From NCBI GenBank assembly GCA_964454175.1, contig CAYVSA010000001.1, positions 9,993 through 73,992 on the forward strand: 64,000 nt of DNA, written 5' to 3'. Below, in pieces: positions 8,389-40,601 of this stretch (its first letter is position 1; every line of letters begins with the position of its first letter). The position numbers were made by a program, and so were the translations under genes. Source of the DNA: an uncultured Pseudomonadota bacterium. Its GTDB lineage: Bacteria > BMS3Abin14. A model generated the notes under the pieces. It had not been told where the DNA came from. It made no database searches and saw only the letters and a program-made list of their open reading frames with translations.

Positions 8389-8528
8389 CCGTTAGCATAT
8401 TTCCTTAACTATTGCAATTGGTTTGCCGGTTATCTTTGACATTTCATCTGACCTTATTCTATATTCAGATGATTTACCGGCAAAGTTGCGTAATACAGGA
8501 AACTTTCTTCGATGCGGTGACCCGTTAT

Positions 8529-8924
8529 ATGGATGAGTTCAAGATAGTTACGAGAAAAAGGGAAGAGCTCATCGACATCACCGCCAGTGTTGCCGACATC
8601 CTCTCCTCCGCCGGCGTATCTTCTGGAATTTGTGTCCTGTACTGTCCCCACACTACTGCGGCCATTACGATAAACGAAGGAGCGGATCCGGATGTTGCGT
8701 CGGATATTATCATCGGCCTGGCCCGGCTGGTTCCGTCCACCTGGCCATTTGCACATCTGGAGGGCAACTCTGACGCACACTTGAAAGCGAGCCTGGTGGG
8801 CCCCTCCCAGACAGTGATGATCAGAGAAAACGAACCTGTCCTTGGTACATGGCAGAGGATTTTTTTCTGTGAGTTCGACGGTCCCCGCACCAGGTCCGTC
8901 CTGGTTAAAATAGTAGAGGGCTGA
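8529..8924 (+). CDS. YjbQ / UPF0047 family protein (secondary thiamine-phosphate synthase-like)
   Basis: 'TASVADIL...GICVLYCPHTTAAITINE...HLKASLVGPSQTV' matches the YjbQ family. I place the start at the internal ATG at 8529; the upstream in-frame extension looks non-coding. Confidence 0.7.
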   Translation: MDEFKIVTRKREELIDITASVADILSSAGVSSGICVLYCPHTTAAITINEGADPDVASDIIIGLARLVPSTWPFAHLEGNSDAHLKASLVGPSQTVMIRENEPVLGTWQRIFFCEFDGPRTRSVLVKIVEG

Positions 8925-8926
8925 GA

Positions 8927-10870
8927 GTGCAGGGGACGAAGGATGAAGGTTTGAGCATCGAAGGCTATCGCGAGTGCCACCTGTGTTCAGTCCAGAACAA
9001 GACAAAAGCACGAAGGTGCAGGATGTGCACAGGACTTCTGAGCATGCGCGACCTTCTCTACCTGGAGATAGAGCGGGCACGGCGAAAGAAGATAGCCCCC
9101 TGGCTGTCCGCCATTGTGCCAGGCCTCGGGCACTGGTTCACCGGCAGAAGGTATATCGGGACTTTCTATTTCGCACTGTCACCCCTGGCCCTGGGCCTTG
9201 TTCTGTCTACCTACCGCGGCTGGAACTGGGGCTACACCATTCTCTCCCTAGGTTTCTTCCTGATATGGGTCATGGCTATTGTGGACGCTGGCAGGGGCCC
9301 TGGTGAATTTCACGCGCCGTGCCAGCTGGCGTGTCCTGGAAAGGTTCCGTGTTCCCACTACGTTCACCTTGCTGCCGAGGGAAAAGACCTTCAATCTCTG
9401 GAAATAGTAGAGCTTGTGTGTCCTTTCCCCGGGACTATCGGAAGGATATGCCACCATCCATGCGAAAGGGACTGCAACAGGGGCAAGGATGGAGAGCCCA
9501 TAGCCATCTGTGTTATCAAGCGATTTGTAGATGATCAGGTCAAAAGGCCCTACAACATCTACCGTCGGGAGATCCAGGATCATCCCGCCGCAATCGACAA
9601 GAGCATTGCTGTCGTCGGTTCCGGCCCCGCAGGTCTAACAGCTGCACTATTCCTCAGGATACTGGGTTTTTCAGTCACCATCTTTGAGGAACGGGATACT
9701 GCGGGAGGGACACCGGACATATACTCTCCTCATTTCCGGCTTCCGCGTGATGTTTACAAAAGAGAGGTCGACAGGATCCTCGACCTGGATGTAGAGACAA
9801 AATTCGGACAGTCACTGGGTAGAGATTTTTCCCTGGCGGACCTTAAAGCCCAGGGTTTTGCCGGTGCTTTTCTCGCGATCGGGTCCATGAGACCCGTCCA
9901 GCTCCCCCACACGGGAAAAGCAGAAGAAGGGTTCCTGGACGGCAGGGACCTTCTGGTCAGAGCTGCAGCGGGTGATGTCCATCCTCTTTCCGGAAATGTG
10001 ATCGTAATTGGCGGGGGGAACGTCTCGATGGATGTTGCCAGGACCGCTCTGAGGATCGGCGCTGAGAAAGTAACTGTGGTCTGTCTGGAAAAAAGGCCTG
10101 AACAGCGGGAAAAGATGTTCAGGCACATAGGGGCAGAGTGGACGGAGATAAAATACGAGGATCATGGCGAGTTCATGCCGGCTAACCTCTGGGATATTCA
10201 GGATGCGGTGGACGAAGGAGTTGAGATCATGGACAGTTCGGCTACCATCTCCTTCGATACCGATAGCGGCAGCCTGTCGAGGGCTTTTTGTCAGAAAGTG
10301 TCACATATTGAAAGTTCCGAGCATGGACGGCTGGTTCCGGTTTTCAAAGAGGGAACGGGTTTCTGGCTCGACGCGCAATGGGTGATCACCGCCGTGGGAT
10401 CTGTTCCCGACTACTCTTTCCATGGGGGAAAGCCCGACATGAACCCCCTGCTTGCGGAAGTGCCGTTAGCCGAGGTTTCGGCCTTGTCAGATGAATCATT
10501 CATCGTTCTTGCGGGTGGGGACAACGTACACGGGCCAGCTTCGATCATTGAAGCTATCGCTGCCGGCAGAGAGGCTGCCAAGCACTTTTACAGTAGTGTC
10601 GTTGGCAAAACACCTGTCAGCATAAGGTACACGAGCCGTCGGATCAAGCCTCCATGGGCCAACTACCTGGACAGCTACGATATGAGGCGCCGCAGGCAGG
10701 AAGTCTCTCTGGCGCCCGGAGCAAGAGTGACTGATTTTGCCGAGGTACACAAAGGTTTCCCCAAAAGGGTGGCAATGGAGGAAGCCGACCGCTGCATGCG
10801 CTGCGACTGGACACTCACAAGGCAGTCCAAGGTGGATAAATATCTTGCTAAACTGAAAAAAGAGGAATAG
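8927..10870 (+). CDS. Membrane-anchored GltD-like NAD(P)H-dependent FAD/Fe-S oxidoreductase (zinc ribbon + TM2 domain + glutamate synthase small-subunit-like domain)
   Basis: The N-terminal CxxC...CxxC zinc ribbon is followed by a TM2-domain signature 'LSAIVPGLGHWFTGRRYIG' with two TM helices. Next comes a GltD-type Cys cluster 'ICHHPCERDC', a Rossmann 'VVGSGPAGLTAA', a second 'VIGGGNVSMD', and a C-terminal 'RCMRCD'. Confidence 0.6.
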   Translation: MQGTKDEGLSIEGYRECHLCSVQNKTKARRCRMCTGLLSMRDLLYLEIERARRKKIAPWLSAIVPGLGHWFTGRRYIGTFYFALSPLALGLVLSTYRGWNWGYTILSLGFFLIWVMAIVDAGRGPGEFHAPCQLACPGKVPCSHYVHLAAEGKDLQSLEIVELVCPFPGTIGRICHHPCERDCNRGKDGEPIAICVIKRFVDDQVKRPYNIYRREIQDHPAAIDKSIAVVGSGPAGLTAALFLRILGFSVTIFEERDTAGGTPDIYSPHFRLPRDVYKREVDRILDLDVETKFGQSLGRDFSLADLKAQGFAGAFLAIGSMRPVQLPHTGKAEEGFLDGRDLLVRAAAGDVHPLSGNVIVIGGGNVSMDVARTALRIGAEKVTVVCLEKRPEQREKMFRHIGAEWTEIKYEDHGEFMPANLWDIQDAVDEGVEIMDSSATISFDTDSGSLSRAFCQKVSHIESSEHGRLVPVFKEGTGFWLDAQWVITAVGSVPDYSFHGGKPDMNPLLAEVPLAEVSALSDESFIVLAGGDNVHGPASIIEAIAAGREAAKHFYSSVVGKTPVSIRYTSRRIKPPWANYLDSYDMRRRRQEVSLAPGARVTDFAEVHKGFPKRVAMEEADRCMRCDWTLTRQSKVDKYLAKLKKEE

Positions 10871-18677: not shown

Positions 18678-19322
18678 CTACTCGTTTGCAAGCTGGAATG
18701 CCAGACCCTCCAGGTCGATGGCAAAATCAACATTTCTCAGTATCGTTCCTGGCGGTACCTTGAGGGTAGCCGGAGTAAAGTTAAGTATGCCTTTTATGCC
18801 TGCATCAACAAGTTGATGGGCAACCTGGAAGGCGTTTTCCGGGTTTACCGCGATTATTCCTATCCTGATGCCCAACTCTTCCACAACGCGCCTCATCTTG
18901 TCCATGGAAAAGAGGGGGATATCCTTGAATGAACCCATCTCAACGAGTATGGGATCCTGCTCGAATATCGCCGCAATTTCAAATCCTCTCTTGGCCAGGG
19001 AATCGGTTCCGAGGAGTGCGAATCCCAGGTTTCCTGCTCCCACCAGAGCACAGCTCCAGGATCTGTCTATGCCGAGGGCCCTCTTGATATCCTCCTGAAG
19101 GTTCTCCACGTAGTACCCTACACCCCTGACCCCGAACTCGCCGAAATATGCAAAATCCTTCCTGATCTGAGCCGGGTTGGTCCCGCATTTTCGGGCAATG
19201 TCAGAGGAGGAAATGATCCTCTGTCCCGACTTCTGAACCTCCTCAAGGCACCTGTCGTAAAGGGAGAGGCGCCTTATAGTCGCTTCCGGGATCTTAACCC
19301 TGCTGACTTTTCTAAATACCAT
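18678..19322 (-). CDS. rex: Redox-sensing transcriptional repressor Rex
   Basis: The N-terminal wHTH 'IPEATIRRLSLYDRCLE' and the Rossmann NADH-binding 'ALVGAGNLGFAL' are present. Length is 214 aa. It overlaps the upstream cytochrome gene's end by 11 bp. Confidence 0.85.
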   Translation of the reverse strand: MVFRKVSRVKIPEATIRRLSLYDRCLEEVQKSGQRIISSSDIARKCGTNPAQIRKDFAYFGEFGVRGVGYYVENLQEDIKRALGIDRSWSCALVGAGNLGFALLGTDSLAKRGFEIAAIFEQDPILVEMGSFKDIPLFSMDKMRRVVEELGIRIGIIAVNPENAFQVAHQLVDAGIKGILNFTPATLKVPPGTILRNVDFAIDLEGLAFQLANE

Positions 19323-20676
19323 TTCTCACCTGCCTTGTAAGTTGCATAGCATTATCCAGGTCACTGCTGACTTTTTCCAGCACTTTCATAGTATAGCTGT
19401 AATTGTGGACCGGCACTCCGGCTTCGACAAAGGAGAGGTCGTTCCTGCTTTCAGACAGAAGCCTGCTGGCTTCATCCTTTCGATCTGATTGCGCCATGGA
19501 GGAGATGCCGGTATCGGCACTGCGAATCCTGGCCCGCACCGCGGCTATGGTTCTTGCCAGTTCATCACTCCAGGAAAGGAGCAGGTCCCCGCGACCAGTC
19601 TCATGGCAAAGTTCGCACCTTTTGCCGTCGGCCCTCATGCCGGGTTTGGCGGAATCGGTGCCGGACCCCTCCCTGGCGGCAGGTCCGTGACATGCCACGC
19701 ATTCTACTCCAGCGAGATACATTGGGGATGGTTCGGGCTCTACACCGGATATCCCTTCTCCGCCGTATAGCGACATGATGGCCCTGTGCCCGCCGCCATG
19801 ACAGAGGACGCAGCCGTTTTCAAGAACGACTCTCTGCTCCGGAAGCTGATGGCGTATAACGCTGTGGCATTCGCTGCACTCTACCTTGTGATCGGTTACG
19901 TGGCGTCTGTGAATGGTCTCGACGGATTCAGATGCTGTGACTTTGCCTGTCCTGCTGTGGCAGTCGGCGCAGTTCTCGTACAGGACATCGCCGCTTCCCT
20001 GGACAATGTCCAGGTGGCAGTAGCGGCAGTCTACTGATCTTTCCATAAAATCGGTGTGATCCAGCTTTCCGCCGGCATATTCCACAGGGTTTTCCGGCGG
20101 AGTGTGGCAAAGGGTACACGTGGCGGTGGGGGGATTGTTCTCGAACCCTTTGAAATGGCAAATAAAGCAGGCGCTTTCAGCAACGGTCATGTGATCTCCC
20201 ATGGCGATATGGGAGTGACACGTGGTACAGCGCAGTATCTTGCCACGGCTTAATTTCTGCATGTGGGGTTTGTGATCGAAAATAACGCCTTCCTTGTAAA
20301 CGACCTGACCCTCCAGCAGCCTGCCGGAATGGCATTCTGTCTGCAGGCAGTTAGCGTCCAGGACCTCTGCCCTGGTTCTTTCGCCATATGTGCGGGTGAA
20401 ATAGCTGCCGAGCTGCATAAAAGCGCGGAACCTGGGCATCAGGTGGCCGTCCTCATCAGGCCGGGTGTGGCACTGGACGCAGGGTACATTGTTGTGAGTC
20501 GATCCCTTCCAGTCTTGGTAATAGTGCTTCATGACGTGGCAGGTGTTGCCGCAAAATACCGCGGTTTCAGTCACCTTCAGAGTTGCCCACGTTGAGAAGA
20601 ACAGCAGCGCCAGGACAATGAGAAGAACTTCATAGAAGCGAAGCTTCCCGAGAAATTTAACTCCCCTCTCTTTCAT
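19312..20676 (-). CDS. NapC/NirT/NrfH-like membrane-anchored multiheme cytochrome c (about 12 CxxCH)
   Basis: There is an N-terminal TM helix, then 'CGNTCH' plus at least 10 further CxxCH motifs, including a CxxxCH variant. It is the last cytochrome gene of the operon. Confidence 0.8.
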   Translation of the reverse strand: MKERGVKFLGKLRFYEVLLIVLALLFFSTWATLKVTETAVFCGNTCHVMKHYYQDWKGSTHNNVPCVQCHTRPDEDGHLMPRFRAFMQLGSYFTRTYGERTRAEVLDANCLQTECHSGRLLEGQVVYKEGVIFDHKPHMQKLSRGKILRCTTCHSHIAMGDHMTVAESACFICHFKGFENNPPTATCTLCHTPPENPVEYAGGKLDHTDFMERSVDCRYCHLDIVQGSGDVLYENCADCHSRTGKVTASESVETIHRRHVTDHKVECSECHSVIRHQLPEQRVVLENGCVLCHGGGHRAIMSLYGGEGISGVEPEPSPMYLAGVECVACHGPAAREGSGTDSAKPGMRADGKRCELCHETGRGDLLLSWSDELARTIAAVRARIRSADTGISSMAQSDRKDEASRLLSESRNDLSFVEAGVPVHNYSYTMKVLEKVSSDLDNAMQLTRQVRNGI

Positions 20677-20880
20677 GACTGCCCTCTGACCGGGTCTTTA
20701 CAGGCTGGAATCTCGCTGTATAACAGGCCCGGTAAAGTCGAGATTGTGAATAACCCGACAGTTTGAGAAGATTAGCACAGGTCACCTTTGGTGTCAATTA
20801 ACATGCGGGTTTCACTAACATCGTGCCAGCAATATTAACCCCATACAGGCAAAGTTTAAGATACATCTGGGTACAAGTCC

Positions 20881-21750
20881 TCATCGGATCTCCATGAGGG
20901 CAGAGTAGATGATAAAGAGGACCATGGTCAGCCCGAGACCATAGGCCGCAAAACCTGCGATCCGTGACCAGATAACGGTGGTTCGGGTTGGCGGATCTGT
21001 TGTCAGATCTTCCAGTTTGCCCGCTTCAACAAGCCTTCTGTACTCTGCGGGTCTTTCGTGGACCAGTTCTTCCTCGGTTATCCTGCCCGTGAAGATGACA
21101 TTGTCCAGGGGGAACTTCTCGGGGCGAAGGTGGGTATTGAAAAAATGTACCGTGAATATGAAGCCTGCCGCCAGCAGTGCCTCATCGGAATGCAATATAA
21201 TAGAGACGTTAAAAGCCCAGCCAGGAAGGAACTTTGAGAAGAACTCCGGGAACCATAGAGTCAGCCCTGAAAAACCGATTATCCCGACACCCCAGAAGAC
21301 AGCGAGGTAGTCAAATTTCTCCCAGTATGTGAACCTGTCAAAATCAGGCCTGCTGCCCTTGCCGAGGAACCACCTGAAATGCCCGATGATATCTTCAAGA
21401 TCTTTTTTCCAGGGCATCATGGAATTAGGCCCTGTCAGGAAGGCAAAGAAGGGCTCCTCCCGAAGGCAGACAATATAATAGGCTGCCCATGCGAGGTGCA
21501 GCGTGAAGTAAACGAATGTAATGAAGCCGCAGACGCGGTGGATATAACCTGCAGTCTGGATGCCGCCCAGAAAAAGCGCAAAGGTCCTGGCCCAGGCAGC
21601 CTCACTGTACTTTAAGGGCATGCCGGTCAGGACCAGACCCATGAAACTGATGATTATCAGGGCGTGCAGAAATCGGTGGTAGTATTGGAACCGGAGGTAG
21701 TAAATGGGGTTTTTCTCCCCGTTCCGGAGGTCGTTTGCATAATTTATCAT
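20881..21750 (-). CDS. Membrane b-type cytochrome (Ni/Fe-hydrogenase or formate dehydrogenase gamma / PhsC-like di-haem b subunit)
   Basis: It has 5-6 TM helices with conserved His pairs in the TM segments (HRFLHAL, IHRV, HLAW, HFFNTH). It is flanked by the two multiheme c genes. Confidence 0.55.
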   Translation of the reverse strand: MINYANDLRNGEKNPIYYLRFQYYHRFLHALIIISFMGLVLTGMPLKYSEAAWARTFALFLGGIQTAGYIHRVCGFITFVYFTLHLAWAAYYIVCLREEPFFAFLTGPNSMMPWKKDLEDIIGHFRWFLGKGSRPDFDRFTYWEKFDYLAVFWGVGIIGFSGLTLWFPEFFSKFLPGWAFNVSIILHSDEALLAAGFIFTVHFFNTHLRPEKFPLDNVIFTGRITEEELVHERPAEYRRLVEAGKLEDLTTDPPTRTTVIWSRIAGFAAYGLGLTMVLFIIYSALMEIR

Positions 21751-21770
21751 TTCGTCCTCCCGCCTGTATT

Positions 21771-22967
21771 TCAGTTCAAATTATCTTTTTTCCTCTCTTC
21801 GATGTGCCCCCTCACCAGCCACAGTGCTGTGTGGATACCGAAGAATATGAATACCCCGGAGAGCAGGAGCACCATTGCCAGGTAGAGGTAATAGAGTCCG
21901 GGATAATTTTCCTTGTCGTGGTAATCGGCATGCGGAAGGTATTTGACGAAGTTGGCGTTGGCCCCAGGGTGGCAAACCCCGCAGGTTTTGACCAGGTTGC
22001 CGGGATGGACCATTGATTCATTGTCATCCCTTGGCAGGATGTTGTGAGCTCCGTGGCAGTCTGGACATTGGGCGGCTTTCGAATACCCCATGCCCGTCAC
22101 CTGCCCGTGGTAGGTGTTCTTGAAGGTGTCACTCTCCTTTTCGTGACAGCCTGAGCACCGCCTGGTCACTGTAAGCATAAAATCCTTGTCCATGGCACGG
22201 TCTACCTTGTGAGCACCGTGACAGGAGATACAGGTTGGTGCCTCCTGGCTGCCCTCGGTGAACGCACTGCCATGGACACTGGAATTGTAAACGTTCACTA
22301 TGCCGGCGTGGCACGAACTGCAGGTGGTATTGATCCTGTTTCTGTGGGTCATTGCCCTCTCATCGTCTGCGGAATAGATGTTGTGGCTGCCGTGGCAGTC
22401 ATTGCATACGGCCGAAAAGATCATGCCGCTCCTGAAAAGAACGATGCCGTGCATGCCCTCCTCGAAATCGGAGCACACGTCAGATCTGAGAGCAGGATGT
22501 CTTTCGAGGATCTCAGGGCTGTCGTGACAGGTGCAGCATGTTGCCGGCAAGTTCAGCTCATAGGCTCTGGATTGGACGTTGCTGGTTGGCAAAATGTCGT
22601 GCTTGCCGTGGCAGCTGGAGCAGACCGGCAGGTCCGTCCGGGTCCGCGCATTCCCTGGCGAGTGGTCGCTTACCCTGAATTTGGCGACCATGTCGTCATG
22701 GCAGCGGCCGCAGTCTACAGCTTCCACTTCCTCATCGTGTTCATCTTCAGCGTCTTCCAGTTGAACATGACAGTCTGTACAGTCCAGGTCCCCGTGTATC
22801 GATCGGGAGAAGACATCCTCATCTATAAACAGAGAAAGCTCCTCCCCATCTACTTCTTTTGTGAGTGTGTCATCAGAATGACAGTCGAAGCAATCTGAGG
22901 TGGTCAGGGCCTGGGCCGGAGCGTAAAGAAGAAGTATGGCCACCGACAGAATAAACGCATATCTCAT
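21771..22967 (-). CDS. Periplasmic multiheme cytochrome c (11 CxxCH) with a C-terminal TM anchor
   Basis: It has a Sec signal peptide and 11 CxxCH motifs, and ends in 'LYYLYLAMVLLLSGVFIFFGIHTALWLV'. It is the first gene of the operon. Confidence 0.8.
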   Translation of the reverse strand: MRYAFILSVAILLLYAPAQALTTSDCFDCHSDDTLTKEVDGEELSLFIDEDVFSRSIHGDLDCTDCHVQLEDAEDEHDEEVEAVDCGRCHDDMVAKFRVSDHSPGNARTRTDLPVCSSCHGKHDILPTSNVQSRAYELNLPATCCTCHDSPEILERHPALRSDVCSDFEEGMHGIVLFRSGMIFSAVCNDCHGSHNIYSADDERAMTHRNRINTTCSSCHAGIVNVYNSSVHGSAFTEGSQEAPTCISCHGAHKVDRAMDKDFMLTVTRRCSGCHEKESDTFKNTYHGQVTGMGYSKAAQCPDCHGAHNILPRDDNESMVHPGNLVKTCGVCHPGANANFVKYLPHADYHDKENYPGLYYLYLAMVLLLSGVFIFFGIHTALWLVRGHIEERKKDNLN

Positions 22968-27509: not shown

Positions 27510-28016
27510 ATGACTGTAGGTTGGAATAGACAGAATTTCTCAGGGGACAGCCCCGGAGAACACCCCGCTGTAAAGGCCATCGAAGAGAATTTCCCCGCGG
27601 CATTCATTGAGTCCGGATCCTTCAGGGGTGAAGTGTGGGCGGTAGTAAAACCTGAAAAATGCAGAGCTGTCCTGCACTTCCTGGCAGAGGAGCCATCGCT
27701 CTCCTTTAATTACCTGTCCGACCTGACGGCCGTACACGAACCCCGCAAAGACGAACAATTCGAAATAGTATACCAGGTGTATTCCCTGTCAAGGCACTCC
27801 CGCTTCAGGGTCAAAACAAGGCTCGAAGAGGGCATGGAGGCCGACAGCGTTGTCTCCATCTGGCAGGGCGCTAACTGGCTCGAGAGGGAAGTTTACGATA
27901 ATTTCGGTGTAGTTTTTTCCGGTCATCCCGACCTGAGGAGGATCATGAATCCTGAAGGTTTCGACGGCCACCCTCTGAGGAAAGATTTTCCCGTCGGCGG
28001 ACGGGTGAAATGGTGA
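27510..28016 (+). CDS. nuoC: NADH-quinone oxidoreductase subunit C
   Basis: It has a NuoC/30-kDa fold: 'YQVYSLSRHSRFRVK...ANWLEREVYDNFGVVFSGHPDLRRI'. Confidence 0.9.
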   Translation: MTVGWNRQNFSGDSPGEHPAVKAIEENFPAAFIESGSFRGEVWAVVKPEKCRAVLHFLAEEPSLSFNYLSDLTAVHEPRKDEQFEIVYQVYSLSRHSRFRVKTRLEEGMEADSVVSIWQGANWLEREVYDNFGVVFSGHPDLRRIMNPEGFDGHPLRKDFPVGGRVKW

Positions 28017-28025
28017 GGTAGGATC

Positions 28026-29198
28026 TTGGCAAGACAGGAGATAATGACCATTAATATGGGTCCCCACCACCCCTCGACCCACGGGGTGCTCAGGGTGATC
28101 CTTGAGCTGGACGGTGAGACGGTGATAAATGCCGTGCCGGATATCGGCTATCTCCACCGGGGCATAGAAAAACTCGCCGAGCACAAGAAATACATCCAGG
28201 TCCTGCCGCTCACCGACAGGCTGGATTACCTCGCTTCTGGTACGAACAACCTCGCCTATATCCTGGCAGTGGAAAAGCTGCTGGGTCTCGAAGCCCCCAG
28301 ACGGGCCAGGTACATCAGAACCATATTCGCCGAGCTGACGAGGATCGGGAGCCATCTTCTCTGGCTGGGTACTCACGCCGCCGACATCGGAGCCATGACT
28401 GTGCTCCTTTACGGCATGAGAGAGCGGGAGGACGTCCTGGACATCATCGAGGAAACAGCGGGTACACGCCTCATGATGACGTACTTCAGGCCAGGCGGAG
28501 TCGTGAGGGATCTCCCTCCCGGCTTTGACAAGAAGATAAAGAGCTTCCTGAAAACATTCCCCGCAAGGATCGACGAATATGAAAGGCTTCTGACGAAGAA
28601 CAGGATATGGCTCCAGAGGACTGTGGGCATCGGTACGATAAGCCGGGATGAAGCCGTATCCCTGGGGCTTTCGGGTCCGGCTCTGCGCGGTTCGGGAGTG
28701 GACTGGGATATCAGGCGTGACGAGCCTTACGAGGCCTATGATGAGATCGAGTTCGACGTCCCCGTTTATGAGGGCGGCGATGTCTATTCCAGGTATCTGG
28801 CCAGAATAGGTGAACTCAGGCAGAGCGTGCGAATGCTTCTTCAACTCGTGGAAGGCCTGCCCGAAGGGCCATATATCGAAAGGACCGCCAAGTACGTACT
28901 CCCTGCCAAAGAAAGGCTGGACAGCTCCATGGAGGCCATGATCCACCACTTCAAGCTCGTTGTTGAGGGTATGACCCCCCCTGTGGGCGAAGTGTACTCC
29001 ACAATAGAATCTCCCAAGGGTGAGATCGGGTTCTACATCGTGAGCGATGGCAAGCCGCATCCGTACAGGCTCAGGATCAGGCCGCCGTCTTTCGTAAACC
29101 TCCAGTCCCTGTTAACCATGGCAAAGGGGAACATGATTGCTGATGTTGTAGCAATTATCGGAAGTCTTGACATAGTTCTTGGGGAAATTGATCGGTAG
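28026..29198 (+). CDS. nuoD: NADH-quinone oxidoreductase subunit D
   Basis: 'MTINMGPHHPSTHGVLR' matches the 49-kDa subunit. Confidence 0.95.
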   Translation: MARQEIMTINMGPHHPSTHGVLRVILELDGETVINAVPDIGYLHRGIEKLAEHKKYIQVLPLTDRLDYLASGTNNLAYILAVEKLLGLEAPRRARYIRTIFAELTRIGSHLLWLGTHAADIGAMTVLLYGMREREDVLDIIEETAGTRLMMTYFRPGGVVRDLPPGFDKKIKSFLKTFPARIDEYERLLTKNRIWLQRTVGIGTISRDEAVSLGLSGPALRGSGVDWDIRRDEPYEAYDEIEFDVPVYEGGDVYSRYLARIGELRQSVRMLLQLVEGLPEGPYIERTAKYVLPAKERLDSSMEAMIHHFKLVVEGMTPPVGEVYSTIESPKGEIGFYIVSDGKPHPYRLRIRPPSFVNLQSLLTMAKGNMIADVVAIIGSLDIVLGEIDR

Positions 29199-29200
29199 CG

Positions 29201-29683
29201 ATGATGAAACTGTTCGATTCGGAAGAAACAAAAGAGATGGAGGGCATAGCATTACGCTATGCGGCTCCTGCATCCGCGATAATGCCGCTCCTGCACTTTG
29301 TACAGGAAAGGAAGGGCTATCTGGCCGAGGAGTACCTGGTCTTTATCGCCGATTTTCTGGAGATCCCCCACGTCAGGGCCTTCGAGGTGGCAACCTACTA
29401 CACCATGTACTTCACTAAACCCGTAGGCAGGCACCTCATTCAAGTCTGCAGAAATCTGAGCTGCTCTGTAAACGGTGCGCCCGAAGTTATTGCATCTCTC
29501 AGGGAGACCCTGGGTGTTGGCATCGGTGAGACCACTTCCGACGGCATGTTCACGATCGTGGAAGTTGAGTGCATCGGCGCCTGCGACAAGGCGCCAGCCA
29601 TGATGGTCGACGACAAACTCTTCGAGATGGTCAGCCCTGAAACCCTGGGGATGATACTGGATTCATACAGGAAGACCGCGTGA
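29201..29683 (+). CDS. nuoE: NADH-quinone oxidoreductase subunit E (2Fe-2S)
   Basis: The ligands CRNLSC...CIGACDKAP and a thioredoxin-like fold are present. Confidence 0.9.
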   Translation: MMKLFDSEETKEMEGIALRYAAPASAIMPLLHFVQERKGYLAEEYLVFIADFLEIPHVRAFEVATYYTMYFTKPVGRHLIQVCRNLSCSVNGAPEVIASLRETLGVGIGETTSDGMFTIVEVECIGACDKAPAMMVDDKLFEMVSPETLGMILDSYRKTA

Positions 29684-29684
29684 A

Positions 29685-30980
29685 ATGACTAAGATCCTGA
29701 CCCGAAACATAGACCGGCCCAACCCGGCGAATATTGACTCGTACCTCTACAACGAGGGTTACCAGGCGCTTCCCATGGCACTGAATGATATGATGCCTGA
29801 AGATGTGATCGATGAGGTAAAGGCCTCCCGCATCAGGGGCCGCGGCGGTGCCGGGTTCCCGGCAGGCATGAAGTGGGATTTTGCCTCCAGGGACCCAAGG
29901 GGGCCCAAGAACATTATTGCCAACGCCGATGAGGGTGAGCCCGGGACGTTCAAGGACAGGGTGCTCATCGAAAAAGATCCCCACGCTCTCCTGGAGGGCA
30001 TGGCCATAGCGGGCTACGCTGTCGGCGCTGAGTTGGGATTTGTCTACATACGGGGGGAATACCCGGAAGGCGCCAGAATACTTGAAAAGGCCATCGCTGA
30101 TGCAGAGGCCAGGTCGTTCCTTGGCAAAAACATCCTGAACTCGGGGTTCGATTTCACCATAACAGTTCACAGGGGTGCAGGTGCCTACATCTGTGGGGAG
30201 GAAACCGCCCTTATCGAGTCACTGGAGGGCAAGAGAGGCCAATCAAGGATCCGGCCGCCTTTCCCGGTGAACGTCGGCTACATGAATCTGCCAACAGTAG
30301 TTAACAACGTTGAGACCCTTGCTAATATCCCTCAGATCATTCTCAGGGGCGGTGAGTGGTATGCCGGGTTCGGAACCCGGGAGTGTACAGGCACCAAGCT
30401 CTACTCGATAAGCGGTAAGGTGGCCAGGCCCGGGGTATACGAATTGCCCATGGGGACCACACTCAGAGATCTGATATTCGAGCACTGCGGCGGGATGAAG
30501 GACGGCAGGAGCTTCAAGGCCGCATTCCCGGGCGGTGCTTCCAGCGCCTGTCTTGACGAGACCGGGCTCGATGTCCAGCTGGACTTCAACTCCCTCGCGG
30601 CAGCTGGCAGTATGCTGGGTTCAGGGGCCGTCATGGTCCTCGATGATTCGGACGATATGGTCAAGGCTGTTCATGTCCTCATCAAGTTTTTCGAGCACGA
30701 GTCGTGCGGTAAATGCACTCCCTGCAGGGAGGGGCTGTTCTGGATAAGGCAGATATTGGACAGGATCCTCGCAGGGGGAGGGACCGAGAGCGACCTGGAA
30801 CTTCTTCTGAACATAAGCGAAAATATTGCGTCCACTTCATTTTGCGGCCTTGGAGAAGCTTCGGTAAGCGCTCTGGTCAGCACTATTAAAAAGTTCAGGA
30901 GCGAATTTCTGGCTTACATAAACTCTCCTGAGGAAAAAGCCGAAGAAACATCGGCATCGGGGCAGGAGCAGGCATCGTGA
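29685..30980 (+). CDS. nuoF: NADH-quinone oxidoreductase subunit F (FMN/NADH-binding, 4Fe-4S)
   Basis: 'GRGGAGFPAGMKW', 'ESCGKCTPCREG' and 'CGLG' are present. Confidence 0.95.
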   Translation: MTKILTRNIDRPNPANIDSYLYNEGYQALPMALNDMMPEDVIDEVKASRIRGRGGAGFPAGMKWDFASRDPRGPKNIIANADEGEPGTFKDRVLIEKDPHALLEGMAIAGYAVGAELGFVYIRGEYPEGARILEKAIADAEARSFLGKNILNSGFDFTITVHRGAGAYICGEETALIESLEGKRGQSRIRPPFPVNVGYMNLPTVVNNVETLANIPQIILRGGEWYAGFGTRECTGTKLYSISGKVARPGVYELPMGTTLRDLIFEHCGGMKDGRSFKAAFPGGASSACLDETGLDVQLDFNSLAAAGSMLGSGAVMVLDDSDDMVKAVHVLIKFFEHESCGKCTPCREGLFWIRQILDRILAGGGTESDLELLLNISENIASTSFCGLGEASVSALVSTIKKFRSEFLAYINSPEEKAEETSASGQEQAS

Positions 30981-33652
30981 TGGTCAAGATCGAAATTGAC
31001 GGCCGTCAAGTTACTGTTAACGGCCACATCACCGTGCTGGAGGCTGCGAGCAAGCTCGGTATCTACATACCGACCTTCTGCCACCATCCAAGGCTCTCGG
31101 AGCTCGGCGCCTGCAGGATGTGCCTCGTGGAAGTGGAGGGCATGGGTAAACTGCAGACGGCCTGTACGCTTGCAGTTGCAGAGGGAATGGTGATCAGGAC
31201 CAGCACTGACAGGGTGGAAAAATCCCGCCGCGCCATGCTCGAATTCCTGTTGATCAACCATCCACTGGAATGCACTGTGTGCGACGCTTCGGGAGAATGC
31301 ACCCTCCAGGACTTCGCTTTCAAGTTCGGCAGCGCCGAGACGAGGTTCACCGAGAAAAAGAGGGTATTGCGCGACCATATCATAAGCCCCCTCATCGACA
31401 GGAATCTGAACAGGTGCATCCAGTGCAAGCGGTGCGTTAGAATTTGTGACGAAGTTCAGGGCGTCACTGCCCTGGGTATGTCCTACCGCGGGGCAAAGAC
31501 TGTGGTGGGGCCATTTATGGAAAAATCACTGGACTGCGAATACTGCGGCCACTGCATATGGGCCTGCCCGGTGGGTGCCATCACTTCGCGGGTTATGAGA
31601 CACAAGATCCGCACGTGGGAGATGGACAAGGCTGAGGCTATATGCGCGTTCTGCAGCTGCGGCTGCACGCTCACATACAATCACAGGGACAACAGGGTCT
31701 ACAAGGTCACCCACGCTGACGGCAGGGGTGTTAATCAGGGCAGTCTCTGCTCGAGGGGTTATTTCGGATATGATGTGATAAACAGCCCGGAAAGGCTAAC
31801 GACACCACTTGTCCGAAAAGATGGTGAACTGGTTCAGGCAACATGGGAGGAGGCCCTTGAGACCGTTGCATCCGCGCTGGGCAAAGCTGCCGGTGAGGGC
31901 GGTGAAAACGCGGTGGGAGGCATCGTATCAGCTCGGCTTACAAACGAGGAACTATATCTGTTTCAGAAGCTGATGAGATCCTGCCTGTCCAGCAACTGTG
32001 TTGATGTGACCACCGGAGAGTGGAACAGAACAGTCCTTCCAGTACTTGAGGAAAGGCTGGGTGTCTTTGCTGCCACCAACTCCTTAGACGAGGTCACCTA
32101 TGCTGACTCCCTCATCATAATCGGCTGCGACATTACGGTGGAAAACCCCATAACTGGTATAAAGGTGAAGTCGGCCATCCACAGAGGGGGGTCGGTTTCC
32201 GAGATCAACCCCAGGAAAACAGCCCTGTCCCGCATGACAAAGAGGACCATGCTGGTTAGGCCCGGCAACGAACTTACCCTGGTTAAGGGCTTGATCAGGG
32301 CGGTCTTTGACGAGGATCTGATCAGCCAGGAGGACGGGAGCACCTGCAGCAACCTGGATGAACTCAGGCTGTCGGTATTAGACCAGGACCTGAAGTCGAT
32401 CTCCGATGAAACAGGAGTGTCTCAGGAAGACATCACAGGCCTTGCCAGGGAGTTCATGGGGGCGCGCAGGGCGTCCATAATATTCGGTGAGTCTGCTGTC
32501 ATGACTGAGCAGGGTCCGGCTCTTATCAATGCACTTATCGACCTGCTCATGCTCACCGGGAAATTGGGTCAGGAGGGTTTCGGCCTGTATCCCGTAAACG
32601 GTACAGCCAATTTTCAGGGAGCAGTGGACATGGGGGTCGCGCCGGCTCACCTGCCTGGCCACGCCCCCCTTGCTGTAAAGGGCTCGGCTAAAATGCTGGC
32701 CGACGCATGGAAGTCCTCTATCCCGGAAGGCCAGGGTCTTTCGGCTCCACAGATGCTTAAGGCTGCAGTGGAAGGTTCCCTGAAAACGCTCTATGTAGTG
32801 GGTGTAGACATAACCGGTTCTTTCCCCGACAGTTCGATCGCAGAAAAGGCCCTGTCTAACCTGGATTTCCTTGTTGTGCAGGACCTTTTCCTCACGGATA
32901 CAGCAAGGGCGGCAGATGTTGTTCTGCCCGCTGGCAGCCTGGCTGAAAAAAACGGCACCCTTACCAACGTGGAAAGGCGAATCCAGAGAACACGCAGGGC
33001 CATCGACGGGCTGGGGAAGTCCATGCCTGACTGGAGGATCTTTTCTGAACTCGGCGTAGCCCTGGGCCATATGGAAATGAAATATGTGAATGCTGCAGAG
33101 GTGCTGGACGAGATCGCGCAGACCGTGCCCTACTACTCCGGCATCAACCATCGAATACTGGCAGATAATGGGCTCCAGTGGCCCTTCACCCAGGATGACG
33201 CCAGGGAAGTTTACCATGAAGGTTATCTCGGGACCCGCCACCTCCTTTCAGGAGGAGTCGCTGACAGTCTCAGGTCATTTGCAGCCGTGAAATCCTGGGG
33301 CAAAGTGCCAGCGAACGCCGATTATCCCTATACCCTGGTCACAGGAGATCTCCTGTCCCATTCGGGCACCTTCACGCGCTACTCTGAATCGTTGAACAAG
33401 ATAGACTCTGAAGGTGCTGTCGTTATGAATCCGGAAACCGGGGCCAGCCTGGGCATAGATGATGGAGGAAAAGCCAGGGTTGTTTCGGCCCATGGTGAAC
33501 TAACTGTAAAGACCATTTATTCAGAAGACCTCATGGAGGATATTTTCTTCCTTCCGAAACATTTTGCCGACGTACCTGCAGGCAGGTTGATGAGTGCGTC
33601 GGGAAACGGCAGCGAGACTGCTGTTGTGCAGGTACGCGTGGAAAGAGCGTGA
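30977..33652 (+). CDS. nuoG: NADH-quinone oxidoreductase subunit G (long form, Mo-free molybdopterin-oxidoreductase fold)
   Basis: The N-terminal 2Fe-2S 'CHHPRLSELGACRMC', the clusters 'HPLECTVCDASGEC' and 'CIQCKRCVRICDE', and 'CAFCSCGCT' are present. There is no Cys/Sec or His at the FDH active-site position. Confidence 0.9.
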   Translation: MMVKIEIDGRQVTVNGHITVLEAASKLGIYIPTFCHHPRLSELGACRMCLVEVEGMGKLQTACTLAVAEGMVIRTSTDRVEKSRRAMLEFLLINHPLECTVCDASGECTLQDFAFKFGSAETRFTEKKRVLRDHIISPLIDRNLNRCIQCKRCVRICDEVQGVTALGMSYRGAKTVVGPFMEKSLDCEYCGHCIWACPVGAITSRVMRHKIRTWEMDKAEAICAFCSCGCTLTYNHRDNRVYKVTHADGRGVNQGSLCSRGYFGYDVINSPERLTTPLVRKDGELVQATWEEALETVASALGKAAGEGGENAVGGIVSARLTNEELYLFQKLMRSCLSSNCVDVTTGEWNRTVLPVLEERLGVFAATNSLDEVTYADSLIIIGCDITVENPITGIKVKSAIHRGGSVSEINPRKTALSRMTKRTMLVRPGNELTLVKGLIRAVFDEDLISQEDGSTCSNLDELRLSVLDQDLKSISDETGVSQEDITGLAREFMGARRASIIFGESAVMTEQGPALINALIDLLMLTGKLGQEGFGLYPVNGTANFQGAVDMGVAPAHLPGHAPLAVKGSAKMLADAWKSSIPEGQGLSAPQMLKAAVEGSLKTLYVVGVDITGSFPDSSIAEKALSNLDFLVVQDLFLTDTARAADVVLPAGSLAEKNGTLTNVERRIQRTRRAIDGLGKSMPDWRIFSELGVALGHMEMKYVNAAEVLDEIAQTVPYYSGINHRILADNGLQWPFTQDDAREVYHEGYLGTRHLLSGGVADSLRSFAAVKSWGKVPANADYPYTLVTGDLLSHSGTFTRYSESLNKIDSEGAVVMNPETGASLGIDDGGKARVVSAHGELTVKTIYSEDLMEDIFFLPKHFADVPAGRLMSASGNGSETAVVQVRVERA

Positions 33653-34681: not shown

Positions 34682-37600
34682 ATGTCTAAAAGTTCAAACG
34701 ATAAACTGATCGTACTGGGAATGGGCACATGCGGCCTGGCTTCCGGCGCGCGTGGAGTCCTCTCCCAGGTTGAAGAGGAACTTACCAGCCTCAAGCTGGA
34801 TGTGCCTATCCTTAAGACCGGCTGCATAGGGATGTGCTACCAGGAGGTTCTCCTGGACGTGTCACTCCCTGGCCGTACCAGGGTCACCTACGCCAAAGTT
34901 CAGCCCGAGATGGTCTCAAAGATCATTGAAAGCCATGTCGTAAAGGGAAAACCCGTAAACGATTACGCCATCGGGCAGATACAGCAGAACGGTGAAAAGG
35001 CGTATAAGGGCATCCCGACTTACGACGAGATGGATTTCTTCGCGAAGCAAAAGCGGATCGTTCTTCGGCGCTGTGGATTCATCGACCCTGACAAGATCGA
35101 GGATTACCTTGACACAGATGGTTACAAGGCCGCGGAAAAGGCCCTGACAACGCTATCGCCGACCGTGATCAGGGAGATCGTCAAGAAGGCTGGCCTGAGG
35201 GGCCGCGGCGGAGGCGGATTCCCCACCGGTCTCAAGTGGGAGTTCTGCGCCACGGCGGCAGGGGAACCGAAGTACCTCATCTGTAACGCGGATGAGGGTG
35301 ATCCGGGCGCCTTTATGGACAGGAGCGTTCTGGAAGGTGACCCGCACGCGCTGCTGGAGGGAATGATCATTGCGGCCTATGCTATCGGCGCAGAATACGG
35401 CTATATTTACTGCCGCGCAGAGTATCCCCTGGCGATCGAGAGACTGGGAACCGCTATTGCCCGGGCCGAGGAAAAAGGATTCCTGGGAAAGAATATATTC
35501 GGTACTGACTTTTCCTTTACCCTCAGGATCAAGGAGGGCGCCGGAGCTTTCGTCTGCGGCGAGGAAACTGCTCTCATGGCGTCCATCGAGGGTAAACGGG
35601 GCATGCCCCGATCGAGACCGCCTTTCCCTGCTCATAAAGGTCTCTGGGGTAAACCTTCCAACATCAACAACGTCGAGACTTTTGCCTGTGTCGCCCCCAT
35701 CATCCTTGGAGGCGCTGACAGTTATTCCTCGATCGGGACCGAAGGCACCAAGGGCACGAAAGTTTTCGCCCTTACCGGAAAGATCAATAACACGGGGCTG
35801 ATCGAGGTCCCCGCCGGTACCCAGCTAAAGGAGATAATTTACGATATCGGGGGCGGTATTGTTGGTGGAGGCAAGTTCAAAGCCGCCCAGCTCGGGGGCC
35901 CTTCAGGAGGCTGCCTGCCCGCCGAGATCGTTGAAACACCCATCGATTACGATTCACTGATCGAAGCCGGAGCCATGATGGGTTCGGGCGGCGTAGTTAT
36001 AATGGACGAGCGGACTTGCATGGTGGACGTTGCCAGGTTCTTTTTGAACTTCACAACTTCCGAGTCCTGCGGGAAATGTGTGCCCTGCCGCCTTGGGACC
36101 AAGACAATGCTCAGCATCCTGGAGCGTATCACCGCTGGCAAAGGTACCATGCAGGACCTTGTCAACCTGGAGGAGATGGGTGCACAGATAAAGACTACTT
36201 CCCTGTGCGGTCTGGGACAGACTGCCCCGAACCCGGTACTTTCCACCATCAGGTACTTCAGACACGAGTACGAGGCCCACATATTAAACAAGAGATGCCC
36301 CGCGGTAGTTTGCAAGGAGGTCATCTCATCACCGTGCCAGCATGTATGCCCTATCGAGACGGATGTTCCAGCATATGTAACCCTTATCGGGCAGGGGAAA
36401 TTCACGGCCGCTCTTGATCTCATCCGCATGACCAATCCCCTCCCGGCTGTCTGCGGCAGGGTCTGCCATCATCCGTGCGAAAGCAAGTGCAGACGCGGAG
36501 AACTGGACAGGCCTATCAGCATCAGAAACCTCAAGAGGGTAGCCTCCGATAACGCTGCCGCCGATGCTGCCACCGGAAAGTACCAGATCAAGTCAAAGAA
36601 GATCTCCGGCAAGGGAAAGAAGGTCGCTATCATCGGGGGCGGGCCTTCCGGTCTCACGGCAGCCCACTTCCTCGCACTCAAGGATTTTTCCCCTGTCATT
36701 TTCGAAAAACAGAGGGTAGCGGGCGGCATGCTTATGCTGGGAATACCTGAGTACCGCCTGCCGAGACAGACACTGAACCATGAGATCAGGGCAATCGAAG
36801 ATATGGGTGTCCAGATCCATTACAGCACCCCGGTGGGCGAGGCTGTCTCCTTCGATCAGCTCAGGATGGATCATGAAGCTGTATTTATTGCATCCGGTGC
36901 CCACGTCGATCTCAAGATGGGCATACCAGGTGAGGATTCCGAAGGGGTGTATGAAAGCCTCAGCTTCCTCAGAAGGGTTAACCTGGGAGAAGAAGTGGCA
37001 CTGGGAAACAAGGTTGCAGTCGTTGGTGGAGGCAATACCGCCATTGACGCATCGAGGATCGCCAGGCGCCTGGGTGCTGACGTGACGATCCTCTACAGGA
37101 GAACGCAAAATGAAATGCCCGCTGATGACATGGAGATCCATGAGGCTCTCCTGGAGGGTATAGAGCTGGAAACGCTCGTGGCCCCGGTGAAGGTACTTTC
37201 GTCCGGCGGGAAAATGACTGGCGCCACCTGTATCAGGATGGAACTTGGCGAGCCTGATTCTTCCGGAAGACGAAGGCCGGTTCCCATAGAGGGGTCCGAG
37301 TTTGACATTCACCTCGACAACCTGATCGTTGCAGTTTCAGGCAAGCCCGACCTTTCATACCTCACCGACAAACACGGGATAGGACTTTCCAGGTGGGATA
37401 CGGTGGATGTTCACCCCTACACGCAGATGACCAACGTGGAAGGCGTGTTTGCCGGGGGCGACGTGGTTACAGGCCCATGGATGGTCATAGATGCAATTGC
37501 AGCCGGCAAGAGGGCGGCAGCACACATGGAGCTGTTCTTAAACGGGGAGGAAGTTGCCCCATTGTACGATGTCACAAAACCCAATATCTCGGGAATAGAG

Positions 37601-37765
37601 GCAATTGAGCTTACGGATGAGGACATGACCCTTACGAGGCCTGACATGCCCACACTCGAAGTTGTCAAGAGGTTAAAGGACTTCGCTGAGGTTGAACTGG
37701 GTTTTTCCAAAGAAGAGGCTATGAAAGAGGCCAGGCGCTGCCTGCGCTGTGACATTTCTGATTAA
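34682..37765 (+). CDS. Fusion protein: thioredoxin-like 2Fe-2S domain + NuoF/HoxF/FdsB-like FMN-NADH domain + GltD-like NAD(P)H/FAD domain
   Basis: The N-terminus 'GMGTCGLASGA...CIGMCYQ' precedes the NuoF core with 'GRGGGGFPTGLKW', 'ESCGKCVPCRLG' and 'CGLG'. After that comes 'CQHVCPIE...CGRVCHHPCESKC', then the Rossmann folds 'VAIIGGGPSGLTAA' and 'VAVVGGGNTAID', and a C-terminal 'RCLRCD'. Length is 1027 aa. Confidence 0.85.
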   Translation: MSKSSNDKLIVLGMGTCGLASGARGVLSQVEEELTSLKLDVPILKTGCIGMCYQEVLLDVSLPGRTRVTYAKVQPEMVSKIIESHVVKGKPVNDYAIGQIQQNGEKAYKGIPTYDEMDFFAKQKRIVLRRCGFIDPDKIEDYLDTDGYKAAEKALTTLSPTVIREIVKKAGLRGRGGGGFPTGLKWEFCATAAGEPKYLICNADEGDPGAFMDRSVLEGDPHALLEGMIIAAYAIGAEYGYIYCRAEYPLAIERLGTAIARAEEKGFLGKNIFGTDFSFTLRIKEGAGAFVCGEETALMASIEGKRGMPRSRPPFPAHKGLWGKPSNINNVETFACVAPIILGGADSYSSIGTEGTKGTKVFALTGKINNTGLIEVPAGTQLKEIIYDIGGGIVGGGKFKAAQLGGPSGGCLPAEIVETPIDYDSLIEAGAMMGSGGVVIMDERTCMVDVARFFLNFTTSESCGKCVPCRLGTKTMLSILERITAGKGTMQDLVNLEEMGAQIKTTSLCGLGQTAPNPVLSTIRYFRHEYEAHILNKRCPAVVCKEVISSPCQHVCPIETDVPAYVTLIGQGKFTAALDLIRMTNPLPAVCGRVCHHPCESKCRRGELDRPISIRNLKRVASDNAAADAATGKYQIKSKKISGKGKKVAIIGGGPSGLTAAHFLALKDFSPVIFEKQRVAGGMLMLGIPEYRLPRQTLNHEIRAIEDMGVQIHYSTPVGEAVSFDQLRMDHEAVFIASGAHVDLKMGIPGEDSEGVYESLSFLRRVNLGEEVALGNKVAVVGGGNTAIDASRIARRLGADVTILYRRTQNEMPADDMEIHEALLEGIELETLVAPVKVLSSGGKMTGATCIRMELGEPDSSGRRRPVPIEGSEFDIHLDNLIVAVSGKPDLSYLTDKHGIGLSRWDTVDVHPYTQMTNVEGVFAGGDVVTGPWMVIDAIAAGKRAAAHMELFLNGEEVAPLYDVTKPNISGIEAIELTDEDMTLTRPDMPTLEVVKRLKDFAEVELGFSKEEAMKEARRCLRCDISD

Positions 37766-37813
37766 CGGGAGCAGCCTGCGTTAAAGCAGTTAATGAGGAG
37801 TAGGGAAAAGAGC

Positions 37814-40597: not shown

Positions 40598-40601
40598 TGA
40601 G

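Follow-up and report, generated by a model that had tools for sequence, protein, structure and literature searches.

We analyzed a 64,000-nucleotide stretch of contig CAYVSA010000001.1 from an uncultured Pseudomonadota bacterium (GTDB lineage BMS3Abin14); this whole stretch is called the window here. On its forward strand lies a gene for a 647-amino-acid (aa) protein in which an N-terminal zinc ribbon and a predicted two-helix membrane hairpin are followed by an iron-sulfur flavoprotein core of the NfnL/GltD type (Table 1). The gene is a single uninterrupted open reading frame (ORF) with a GTG start, and a Shine-Dalgarno-like GAGGG stands 6 nucleotides 5' of that start. Only 2 nucleotides separate the stop codon of the upstream gene, yjbQ, from the start of the target gene, and the two are therefore probably carried on one transcript. 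A preliminary description of the gene had picked out the motifs CHLC...CRMC, LSAIVPGLGHWFTGRRYIG (residues 60 to 78), ICHHPCERDC, and VVGSGPAGLTAALFL, all of which we found in the product.

Table 1. Features of the target gene, its upstream neighbor, and its paralogous domain in the window. Residue numbers refer to the 647-aa product unless stated otherwise.
Feature	Position	Strand	Basis or remark
Whole gene, predicted membrane-anchored NfnL/GltD-like iron-sulfur flavoprotein	8927..10870	+	647 aa
Zinc ribbon, residues 13-36, GY-x2-C-x2-C-x10-C-x2-C-x-G	8963..9034	+	
Basic cytoplasmic helix (37-57), then weakly hydrophobic S-x3-PG-x-GH motif (58-73)	9035..9145	+	
Predicted transmembrane helix 1, residues 75-95	9149..9211	+	Hydropathy, AlphaFold2
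Predicted transmembrane helix 2, residues 101-122, ends in invariant D120	9227..9292	+	Hydropathy, AlphaFold2
Fixed-length junction, helix 2 end to first cluster Cys	9293..9319	+	D120 to C132 = 12 residues
Iron-sulfur domain, residues 132-206, two [4Fe-4S] clusters	9320..9544	+	Fer4_20, invariant ligands
FAD- and NAD(P)H-binding Rossmann domains, residues 224-560	9596..10606	+	
24-residue insertion, residues 391-414, directly after nucleotide-binding strand	10097..10168	+	Alignment gap, AlphaFold2
C-terminal EEA-x-RC-x-RC-x-W motif, residues 616-628, permuted first half of distal-cluster motif	10772..10810	+	
Short basic C-terminal helix, residues 633-647	10823..10867	+	AlphaFold2 helix 633-646
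yjbQ (UPF0047) gene	8529..8924	+	Pfam UPF0047 E = 4.8e-40
Promoter-like site TTGACA-18-TATATT, 5' of yjbQ	8436..8465	+	11/12 consensus positions; consensus match only
NfnL/GltD-like C-terminal domain of NuoF' (residues 548-1026 of 34682..37765 product)	36323..37762	+	

The ribbon, hairpin, and core are parts of one conserved polypeptide

The preliminary description had read the protein as a fusion of a ribbon, a hairpin, and a GltD-like domain, and our architecture search showed that this fusion is real. In 5.8 billion proteins, we found about 60 clusters of 635 to 685 aa that matched the query over 96 to 100% of its length at 40 to 84% identity. Past these clusters, the matches fell abruptly to about 36% identity and 77% coverage, which corresponds to the core only. 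The ribbon, the PG-x-GH motif, and the core were on one chain in 54 of these full-length homologues, and the same 647-aa protein is present in NCBI (P0001). Thus, the continuous ORF, the identical NCBI product, and the 54 fused homologues rule out that the N-terminal region is a separate small gene or the result of a frameshift. A codon comparison agrees with this: across the 27 ribbon codons, the window and its closest genomic relative (L005) differ by 15 synonymous-only changes and 1 amino acid change. Because synonymous-only changes dominate, the ribbon is translated and under purifying selection. The protein belongs to a conserved family and is not a one-off, with members in BMS3Abin14-like bacteria and in Rokubacteria.

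We examined residue conservation in a 25-sequence alignment of the family. The four ribbon cysteines, C17, C20, C31, and C34, are invariant and have the C-x2-C-x10-C-x2-C spacing of the RanBP2 type. Further invariant residues are G13, Y14, V22, K25, G36, and R53 in the N-terminal region and S61, P65, G66, G68, H69, G78, G102, and D120 in the motif and the helices. The Pfam model Zn_ribbon_RanBP was matched weakly, at 21.7 bits, under its cutoff of 27. By its sequence, the four-Cys motif is a zinc ribbon, with the metal itself predicted.

Predicted topology of the membrane hairpin

Family-averaged Kyte-Doolittle hydropathy was calculated with a 19-residue window and a threshold of 1.6. Only two segments exceeded the threshold, at residues ~76 to 96 and ~101 to 122, with peaks of 1.80 and 1.94. 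An AlphaFold2 model built from a 65-sequence alignment was confident (mean predicted local distance difference test score, 89.2; predicted template modeling score, 0.90) and placed helices at residues 40 to 63 (long), 67 to 71 (short), 75 to 94, and 101 to 123, the last two of which match the hydrophobic peaks. The preliminary description had placed the anchor at residues 60 to 78. That segment is weakly hydrophobic, the Kyte-Doolittle mean of the motif at residues 58 to 73 being only ~0.5, and both actual membrane helices come after it. The mean number of Lys and Arg residues was 8.3 in the stretch that precedes the hairpin (residues 37 to 75) and 2.2 in the one directly behind it, but only 0.57 in the loop of six residues. 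The simplest reading of the sequence and the model would be a two-helix hairpin with both termini in the cytoplasm and an outer loop of ~6 residues, and the S-x3-PG-x-GH element probably lies at the inner membrane face or interface. A three-helix topology, with the catalytic domain outside the cell, was rejected in view of the weak hydropathy of the motif, the charge distribution, which favors both termini inside, and the cytoplasmic place expected of a flavoprotein that uses NAD(H). Heme ligation by His69 was set aside, since Gln occupies that position in anchored relatives that have no ribbon.

The topology also bears on a suggestion in the preliminary description, that the protein may be receptor-like. 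Such a regulator would sense the NAD(P)H/NAD(P)+ ratio and pass the signal on through the zinc ribbon, and the N-terminal position of the ribbon and the membrane location would suit it. However, an outer loop of ~6 residues leaves no extracytoplasmic sensor domain, the catalytic and cluster-binding residues are all invariant, and we found neither an output domain nor a linked regulator gene. The suggestion is thus without support, and we consider a redox sensor very improbable.

The hairpin resembles a widely reused module

The anchor had been described as TM2 type. This holds as a resemblance, the hairpin being TM2-like, but not as membership in the Pfam family. Pfam TM2 (PF05154; cutoff, 27.9 bits) had no match in the window protein at an E value of ≤1 and none in its N-terminus scanned alone at an E value of ≤10. 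We then scanned 21 family N-termini alone at an E value of ≤10, where every match was below the Pfam thresholds. DUF6677 weakly matched all 21 (best E = 6e-4), DUF5683 matched 8 (best E = 0.053), Zn_ribbon_RanBP matched 6 (best E = 4e-5), and TM2 matched 2 (best E = 0.025). These tests of the window protein and the family N-termini rule out TM2 membership. The nearest model is DUF6677 (PF20382), to which the window N-terminus is a weak match (13.9 bits; E = 0.085; cutoff, 24.3); the window protein stays below every Pfam threshold for DUF6677, TM2, and DUF5683.

With a profile of the N-terminal 122 residues, 629 proteins were matched at an E value of ≤0.001 among 1.84 billion representative proteins. 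The majority are small membrane proteins in which the hairpin occurs one to four times, and several of them score above the Pfam thresholds for DUF6677 and TM2. Proteins above those thresholds match the family N-terminal profile at whole-protein E values of 1e-10 to 1e-11. Because such intermediate proteins link them, the anchor appears to be homologous to the DUF6677/TM2/DUF5683 modules. They share with it the pattern S/A-x3-PG-x-G-(H/Q)-x-(Y/F)-x-G, two hydrophobic helices, and a terminal Asp. In the small bacterial proteins of this group, the hairpin is often preceded by a ribbon, and, unlike the target, these proteins have no catalytic domain; stand-alone ribbon-plus-hairpin proteins of 123 to 159 aa (P0157 and P0159) match the whole N-terminal profile. 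From these sequence matches, the N-terminus appears to be a module in two parts that belongs to the DUF6677/TM2/DUF5683 group and is reused widely.

The profile search also detected anchored NfnL/GltD-like proteins of 529 to 564 aa that have no ribbon and in which PGLGQ replaces PGLGH in the hairpin (P0136, P0166, P0168, P0178, P0223, P0263, and P0266). More divergent anchored members that bear a ribbon are P0125, P0128, and P0240.

The junction between the hairpin and the core has a fixed length

We measured the distance from the terminal Asp of the hairpin to the first Cys of the C-x3-CP motif in 78 anchored homologues. The spacing is 12 in 76 of them and 13 in the remaining 2, and it holds even between anchored proteins that are ~30% identical, the ribbon-less ones included. 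This fixed length suggests that it matters how the hairpin and the catalytic domain are placed relative to each other and that the junction is rigid rather than a loose tether. All 78 sequences end 4 to 25 residues after the C-terminal RC-x2-C.

The core is related to the NfnL-like module of NfnA and StnC

The preliminary description had called the core GltD-like. This stands for the fold and for the Pfam domains: Fer4_20 was found at residues 120 to 206 (55.9 bits; cutoff, 25.8) and Pyr_redox_2 at residues 226 to 392 (53.4 bits; cutoff, 26.1). The only NCBIfam matches were below cutoff, to PRK12771-type "NAD(P)-binding protein" and GltD-type models. Among solved structures, the closest by sequence were NfnA of the Caldicellulosiruptor saccharolyticus NfnABC enzyme (9bov_A; E = 4e-64), StnC of Sporomusa ovata (8oh5_C; E = 6e-55), and NfnA of Thermococcus sibiricus (9n5u_A; E = 1.2e-54), followed by NfnB, GltD, and dihydropyrimidine dehydrogenase. 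Foldseek gave an identical order, with E values from 3e-37 (9bov_A) to 1e-26 across 9bov_A, 5jca_L, 4ylf_B, and 2vdc_G. By both sequence and fold, then, the closest known system is the NfnL-like module of the Bfu-type transhydrogenases NfnA and StnC (9BOV, 9N5U, and 8OH5).

The alignment to the solved relatives covers residues 125 to 629 and takes in both the N-terminal PC-x3-CP and the C-terminal EEA-x-RC-x-RC. Because it includes both ends, the N-terminal cluster motif of NfnB and GltD must be circularly permuted here as it is in NfnA and StnC, with PC-x3-CP at the start of the module and EA-x-RC-x2-C at its end. The C-terminal residues E619, A620, R622, C623, R625, C626, and W628 are invariant, and the motif aligns to EASRCLEC of 9bov_A. 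Also invariant are the other candidate cluster ligands, C132, C136, C175, C179, C183, and K198. In NfnA, the flavin-proximal cluster A7 is held by Cys108, Cys147, Cys151, and Lys170 (PMC11829005), and Lys170 of StnC is the same ligand position (PMC10482914). C136, C175, C179, and K198 of the target align to these four residues and are the predicted ligands of the proximal [4Fe-4S] cluster. By the logic of two-cluster ferredoxin motifs, C132, C183, C623, and C626 would hold the distal one.

The flavin adenine dinucleotide (FAD) motif GSGPAG spans residues 231 to 236, with G231, G233, P234, and G236 invariant in the family. In the second Rossmann domain, which contains GGGNV at residues 362 to 366, G362, G363, N365, and D369 are invariant. 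Invariant R271 corresponds to Arg239 of StnC (R201 of NfnB), which lies by the flavin. The StnC flavin has been described as non-bifurcating, and the Lys ligand is typical of that type (PMC10482914). The 24-residue insertion that follows the nucleotide-binding strand is a predicted beta-hairpin (AlphaFold2 strands 398 to 401 and 404 to 407). It is present in nearly all of clade 1 (P0039 is without it) and entirely missing from clade 2, the Rokubacteria clade.

The YRR motif of NfnB holds the 2'-phosphate of NADPH, and DsrL-1 enzymes, which have no YRR, use NAD(H) (PMC7596348). In the target, C386-L387-E388 aligns to YRR, the motif of the NADPH-specific subgroup formed by NfnB, StnC, and DsrL-2. 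A motif census found (C/F/S)-L-E almost without exception in the main ribbon family and YRR in many soluble relatives. Because C-L-E replaces YRR, the predicted substrate is NADH rather than NADPH.

The target also differs from NfnA and StnC in other respects. Those proteins have an N-terminal [2Fe-2S] domain and continue after RCxxC into the next cluster domain, which is NuoG/Fdh-like. In contrast, the target has neither: its zinc ribbon and two-helix hairpin replace the soluble N-terminal domain, and its chain stops 21 residues after C626. No NfnB or NfnC (BfuBC) genes adjoin it; its neighbors are yjbQ and an S4-domain gene. The NfnB/NfnL subunit of NfnAB (NfnSL; 4YLF and 5JCA) and GltD (2VDC and 6S6S) share the three-domain fold of the target and likewise contain two [4Fe-4S] clusters, FAD, and a site for NAD(P)H, but they work with a soluble partner (NfnA/S or GltB). 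NfnB further differs in its normal N-terminal motif order, its Glu ligand, its bifurcating flavin, and its YRR for NADPH. DsrL-1 is, like the target, an NfnB-related iron-sulfur flavoprotein without YRR, and it acts as a simple donor to a partner protein (PMC7596348). Unlike the target, DsrL is a soluble protein with a ferredoxin domain at its C-terminus, and it is linked to dsrAB.

These comparisons bear on whether the target is a true glutamate synthase small subunit. The database names of family members are generic, for example, "glutamate synthase [NADPH] small chain," and together with the GltD fold they would favor that assignment. However, the protein scores 126.9 bits against 447.7 for TIGR01317 and 136.9 against 482.95 for TIGR01318, and no gltB gene lies near the target in any locus that we examined. 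The missing YRR, the permuted cluster motif, and the Lys ligand also speak against it, and we give it next to no credence. With these same three features, the core is closer to the NfnL-like module of NfnA and StnC than to true GltD, and to that extent the earlier name does not hold.

The core had also been noted as a paralogue of the C-terminal domain of NuoF', a protein encoded elsewhere in the window. We confirmed this: the target and the 1,027-aa NuoF' are 31.8% identical over 507 aa (E = 3.6e-60). The NuoF' domain ends in the same RCxRC motif, but unlike the target it keeps YRR, is NADPH type, is soluble, and is fused to a NuoF flavoprotein in a second NuoE'F'G' module. A phylogeny of the kind proposed in the preliminary description placed the NuoF' domain among NuoF-fused proteins, apart from the anchored family, and grouped the main ribbon family into a single clade that splits into two subclades; this was a crude neighbor-joining tree without bootstraps, in which deeper branching is unreliable. 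Since the identity is 32% and the NuoF' domain groups with NuoF-fused proteins, the paralogy must be old. A recent duplication of NuoF' is ruled out by the same identity and the separate placement.

A possible route for NADH electrons to the membrane

NfnL/GltD-like modules are standard entry ports for NAD(P)H electrons in glutamate synthase, Nfn/Stn transhydrogenases, DsrL, and dihydropyrimidine dehydrogenase, and all of these are soluble. In the papers that could be searched, we found no description of a membrane-tethered GltD- or NfnB-like protein, which supports the impression of novelty in the preliminary description, and a search on DUF6677 or the TM2 domain together with a zinc ribbon gave no relevant paper. 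While there are precedents for the fold, the cofactors, and the permuted motif, those papers do not describe the membrane-integral form, with or without the ribbon.

We propose that the target is a membrane-integral, NAD(H)-dependent iron-sulfur flavoprotein that wires NADH electrons to an acceptor in or on the membrane, and we put the probability of this at roughly 0.55. The cytoplasmic four-Cys ribbon and the basic helix would lead into the DUF6677-like hairpin, and 12 residues past the hairpin the chain would enter the catalytic domain. There, the first Cys pair would combine with the C-terminal RCxRC to form the cluster that is most distant from the flavin. If the non-bifurcating NfnL-like module of StnC and NfnA is taken as a guide, NADH would donate its electrons to FAD, which would hand them to the proximal [4Fe-4S] cluster with its three Cys ligands and Lys198, and from there they would reach the distal [4Fe-4S] cluster. 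The junction, with its fixed length, would keep the distal cluster near the membrane face, and the final acceptor might be menaquinone or a membrane redox protein encoded elsewhere. Because residues that form part of the distal cluster start 12 positions after the helix and the chain ends where NfnA and StnC continue, the acceptor would most likely be at the membrane face. Our analysis shows the architecture and how well it is conserved, the arguments for the topology, the fold, and the residues for cofactor binding, whereas we infer that NADH is preferred, which way the electrons flow, and what the acceptor is and where it lies. The preliminary description had suggested that NAD(P)H electrons could be delivered at the membrane, which is plausible.

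Several points weigh against this proposal. The distance between the distal cluster and the membrane and the pairing of C623 and C626 with C132 are predictions, and the preference for NADH is predicted from motif loss only. The conserved residues of the hairpin (S-x3-PG-x-G-H/Q, Gly, and Asp) are generic to DUF6677-like modules in hundreds of unrelated small proteins, H69 is not retained in the ribbon-less relatives, and no dedicated quinone or heme site is recognizable in the hairpin helices. For NADH:quinone transfer, moreover, the genome already encodes a complete Nuo complex.

In the main rival reading, the hairpin is a tether only. The protein would then be an enzyme that transfers electrons from NAD(P)H to ferredoxin or another soluble acceptor and stays membrane bound, for instance beside a complex that consumes ferredoxin, and electrons would never enter the membrane through it. 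A generic, widely reused hairpin with no enzyme-specific conserved polar residues and no identified quinone-site motif is consistent with this, as is the fact that the distal cluster of NfnB is a ferredoxin-facing exit (PMC10482914). A tether should vary in length, yet the Asp-to-Cys distance is all but constant among the 78 homologues, and the proximal cluster has the StnC-type Lys and not the low-potential Glu of ferredoxin-reducing NfnB. We therefore regard a mere tether as possible but on balance unlikely.

If the proposed electron transfer to the membrane is correct, a membrane-built version of this module, with a fixed-length junction and its exit cluster by the bilayer, would be a new link between the pyridine nucleotide pool and electron transport in the membrane. 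The lineages in which it is found are uncultured and little known (BMS3Abin14-like bacteria, Rokubacteria, and others with ribbon-less versions), and it gives a first enzymatic context to the very common, uncharacterized ribbon-plus-DUF6677-like hairpin module. Were quinone reduced, metabolic reconstructions of these organisms would miss an NADH dehydrogenase; were the protein docked on another complex, it would mark an unrecognized membrane redox system. More tentatively, and with considerable doubt, the family might form an unrecognized class of respiratory NADH dehydrogenase in which a single membrane-integral polypeptide passes electrons from NADH through FAD and two [4Fe-4S] clusters to menaquinone. 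Such an enzyme would be a minimal, non-pumping, iron-sulfur-containing counterpart of NDH-2, the type II NADH:quinone oxidoreductase. NDH-2, likewise a single-polypeptide flavoprotein that delivers NADH electrons to the membrane, is a functional analogue of the proposed role only: it has no iron-sulfur clusters, is monotopic through amphipathic helices, and belongs to a different flavoprotein family.

Distribution and gene neighborhood

A pattern scan with one genome per species found nine loci. They are metagenome-assembled genomes labeled as Pseudomonadota/Proteobacteria bacterium or "bacterium," with the complete chromosome CP070682.1 among them. Three clade-2 loci were found, two from Candidatus Rokubacteria/Rokuibacteriota and one from an "uncultured bacterium." The name of one cluster refers to bacterium BMS3Abin14. 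Members of clade 1 have the gene in a syntenic block of housekeeping genes: NadA, MoaC, PilZ, usually YjbQ, the target, an S4-domain protein, two SurA-like peptidyl-prolyl isomerases, and Mfd. The neighbors in Rokubacteria are other housekeeping genes. The gene contexts that we compared, from seven genomes of clade 1, four loci of Rokubacteria, and three distant homologues with an anchor, have no redox partner gene in common.

This neighborhood bears on a further possibility, that the protein is the NADH-input subunit of a larger membrane complex encoded elsewhere, with the hairpin and the ribbon as docking elements. Zinc ribbons often mediate protein contacts, for which reason the ribbon could have a docking role, and in the characterized relatives the module always feeds another protein or domain (GltB, NfnA/S, or a NuoG-like domain). 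Fer4_5 genes near two distant anchored homologues, one of which also has cytochrome c3, ResB, and CcsA genes close by, would fit such a system. However, the two main clades and the ribbon-less relatives have no neighbor in common, the synteny of clade 1 is with housekeeping genes such as MoaC, PilZ, the S4-domain protein, SurA, and Mfd, and no Fer4_5 gene adjoins the target in the window. We consider a complex subunit rather improbable.

The Fer4_5 genes in question are NapH-like membrane iron-sulfur genes at loci L015 (8595-9470) and L016 (8877-12617). At L016, the homologue also adjoins genes for cytochrome c3 and for ResB and CcsA of cytochrome c maturation. The neighbors at L015 and L016 may be due to chance or may hint at a partner.

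yjbQ adjoins the target gene in six of the seven clade-1 genomes; this adjacency was not seen in the BMS3Abin14 or Rokubacteria loci. Another yjbQ lies ~1.6 kb from a distant ribbon-less homologue (L014). In the window, the TTG at 8412 that is listed as the start of the yjbQ ORF probably lies too far 5'; an ATG in the same frame at 8529 suits the homologues better. Judged by its match to the consensus, the promoter-like site 5' of yjbQ is a possible start of the transcription unit formed by yjbQ and the target gene.

Other loci in the window

The nuo operon (26572-49035, +) carries two NuoEFG-type modules in tandem. It begins with nuoA-B-C-D, E (29201-29683), F (29685-30980), and G (30977-33652). 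A gene for a cyclic-nucleotide-binding protein (33666-34133) stands between nuoG and the second module, which consists of E' (34118-34651), F' (34682-37765), and G' (37793-40597). NuoF' has an N-terminal extension in addition to its YRR-keeping NfnL-like domain, and the second module looks like an NADPH-linked unit of the Bfu/Stn-like kind that was inserted into complex I. After G' come a gene for a zinc ribbon plus tetratricopeptide repeat (TPR) protein (40566-41600, +) and then nuoH-N. That gene, between nuoG' and nuoH, overlaps the end of nuoG' by 32 nucleotides. Its 344-aa product combines an N-terminal zinc ribbon (CPEC...CKEC) with about eight TPR repeats and shows neither a membrane segment nor any similarity to the target N-terminus.

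On the reverse strand at 19312-22967, two multiheme cytochrome c genes (c7/c3 type; 454 and 398 aa) flank the gene of a cytochrome b561-like membrane protein (289 aa), a possible quinol-linked module for extracytoplasmic electron transfer. A 423-aa antisense ORF (27789-29060, -) overlaps the real nuoD (28026-29198, +) and is longer than that gene; the antisense ORF is an artifact of mechanical ORF listing in G+C-rich coding DNA.

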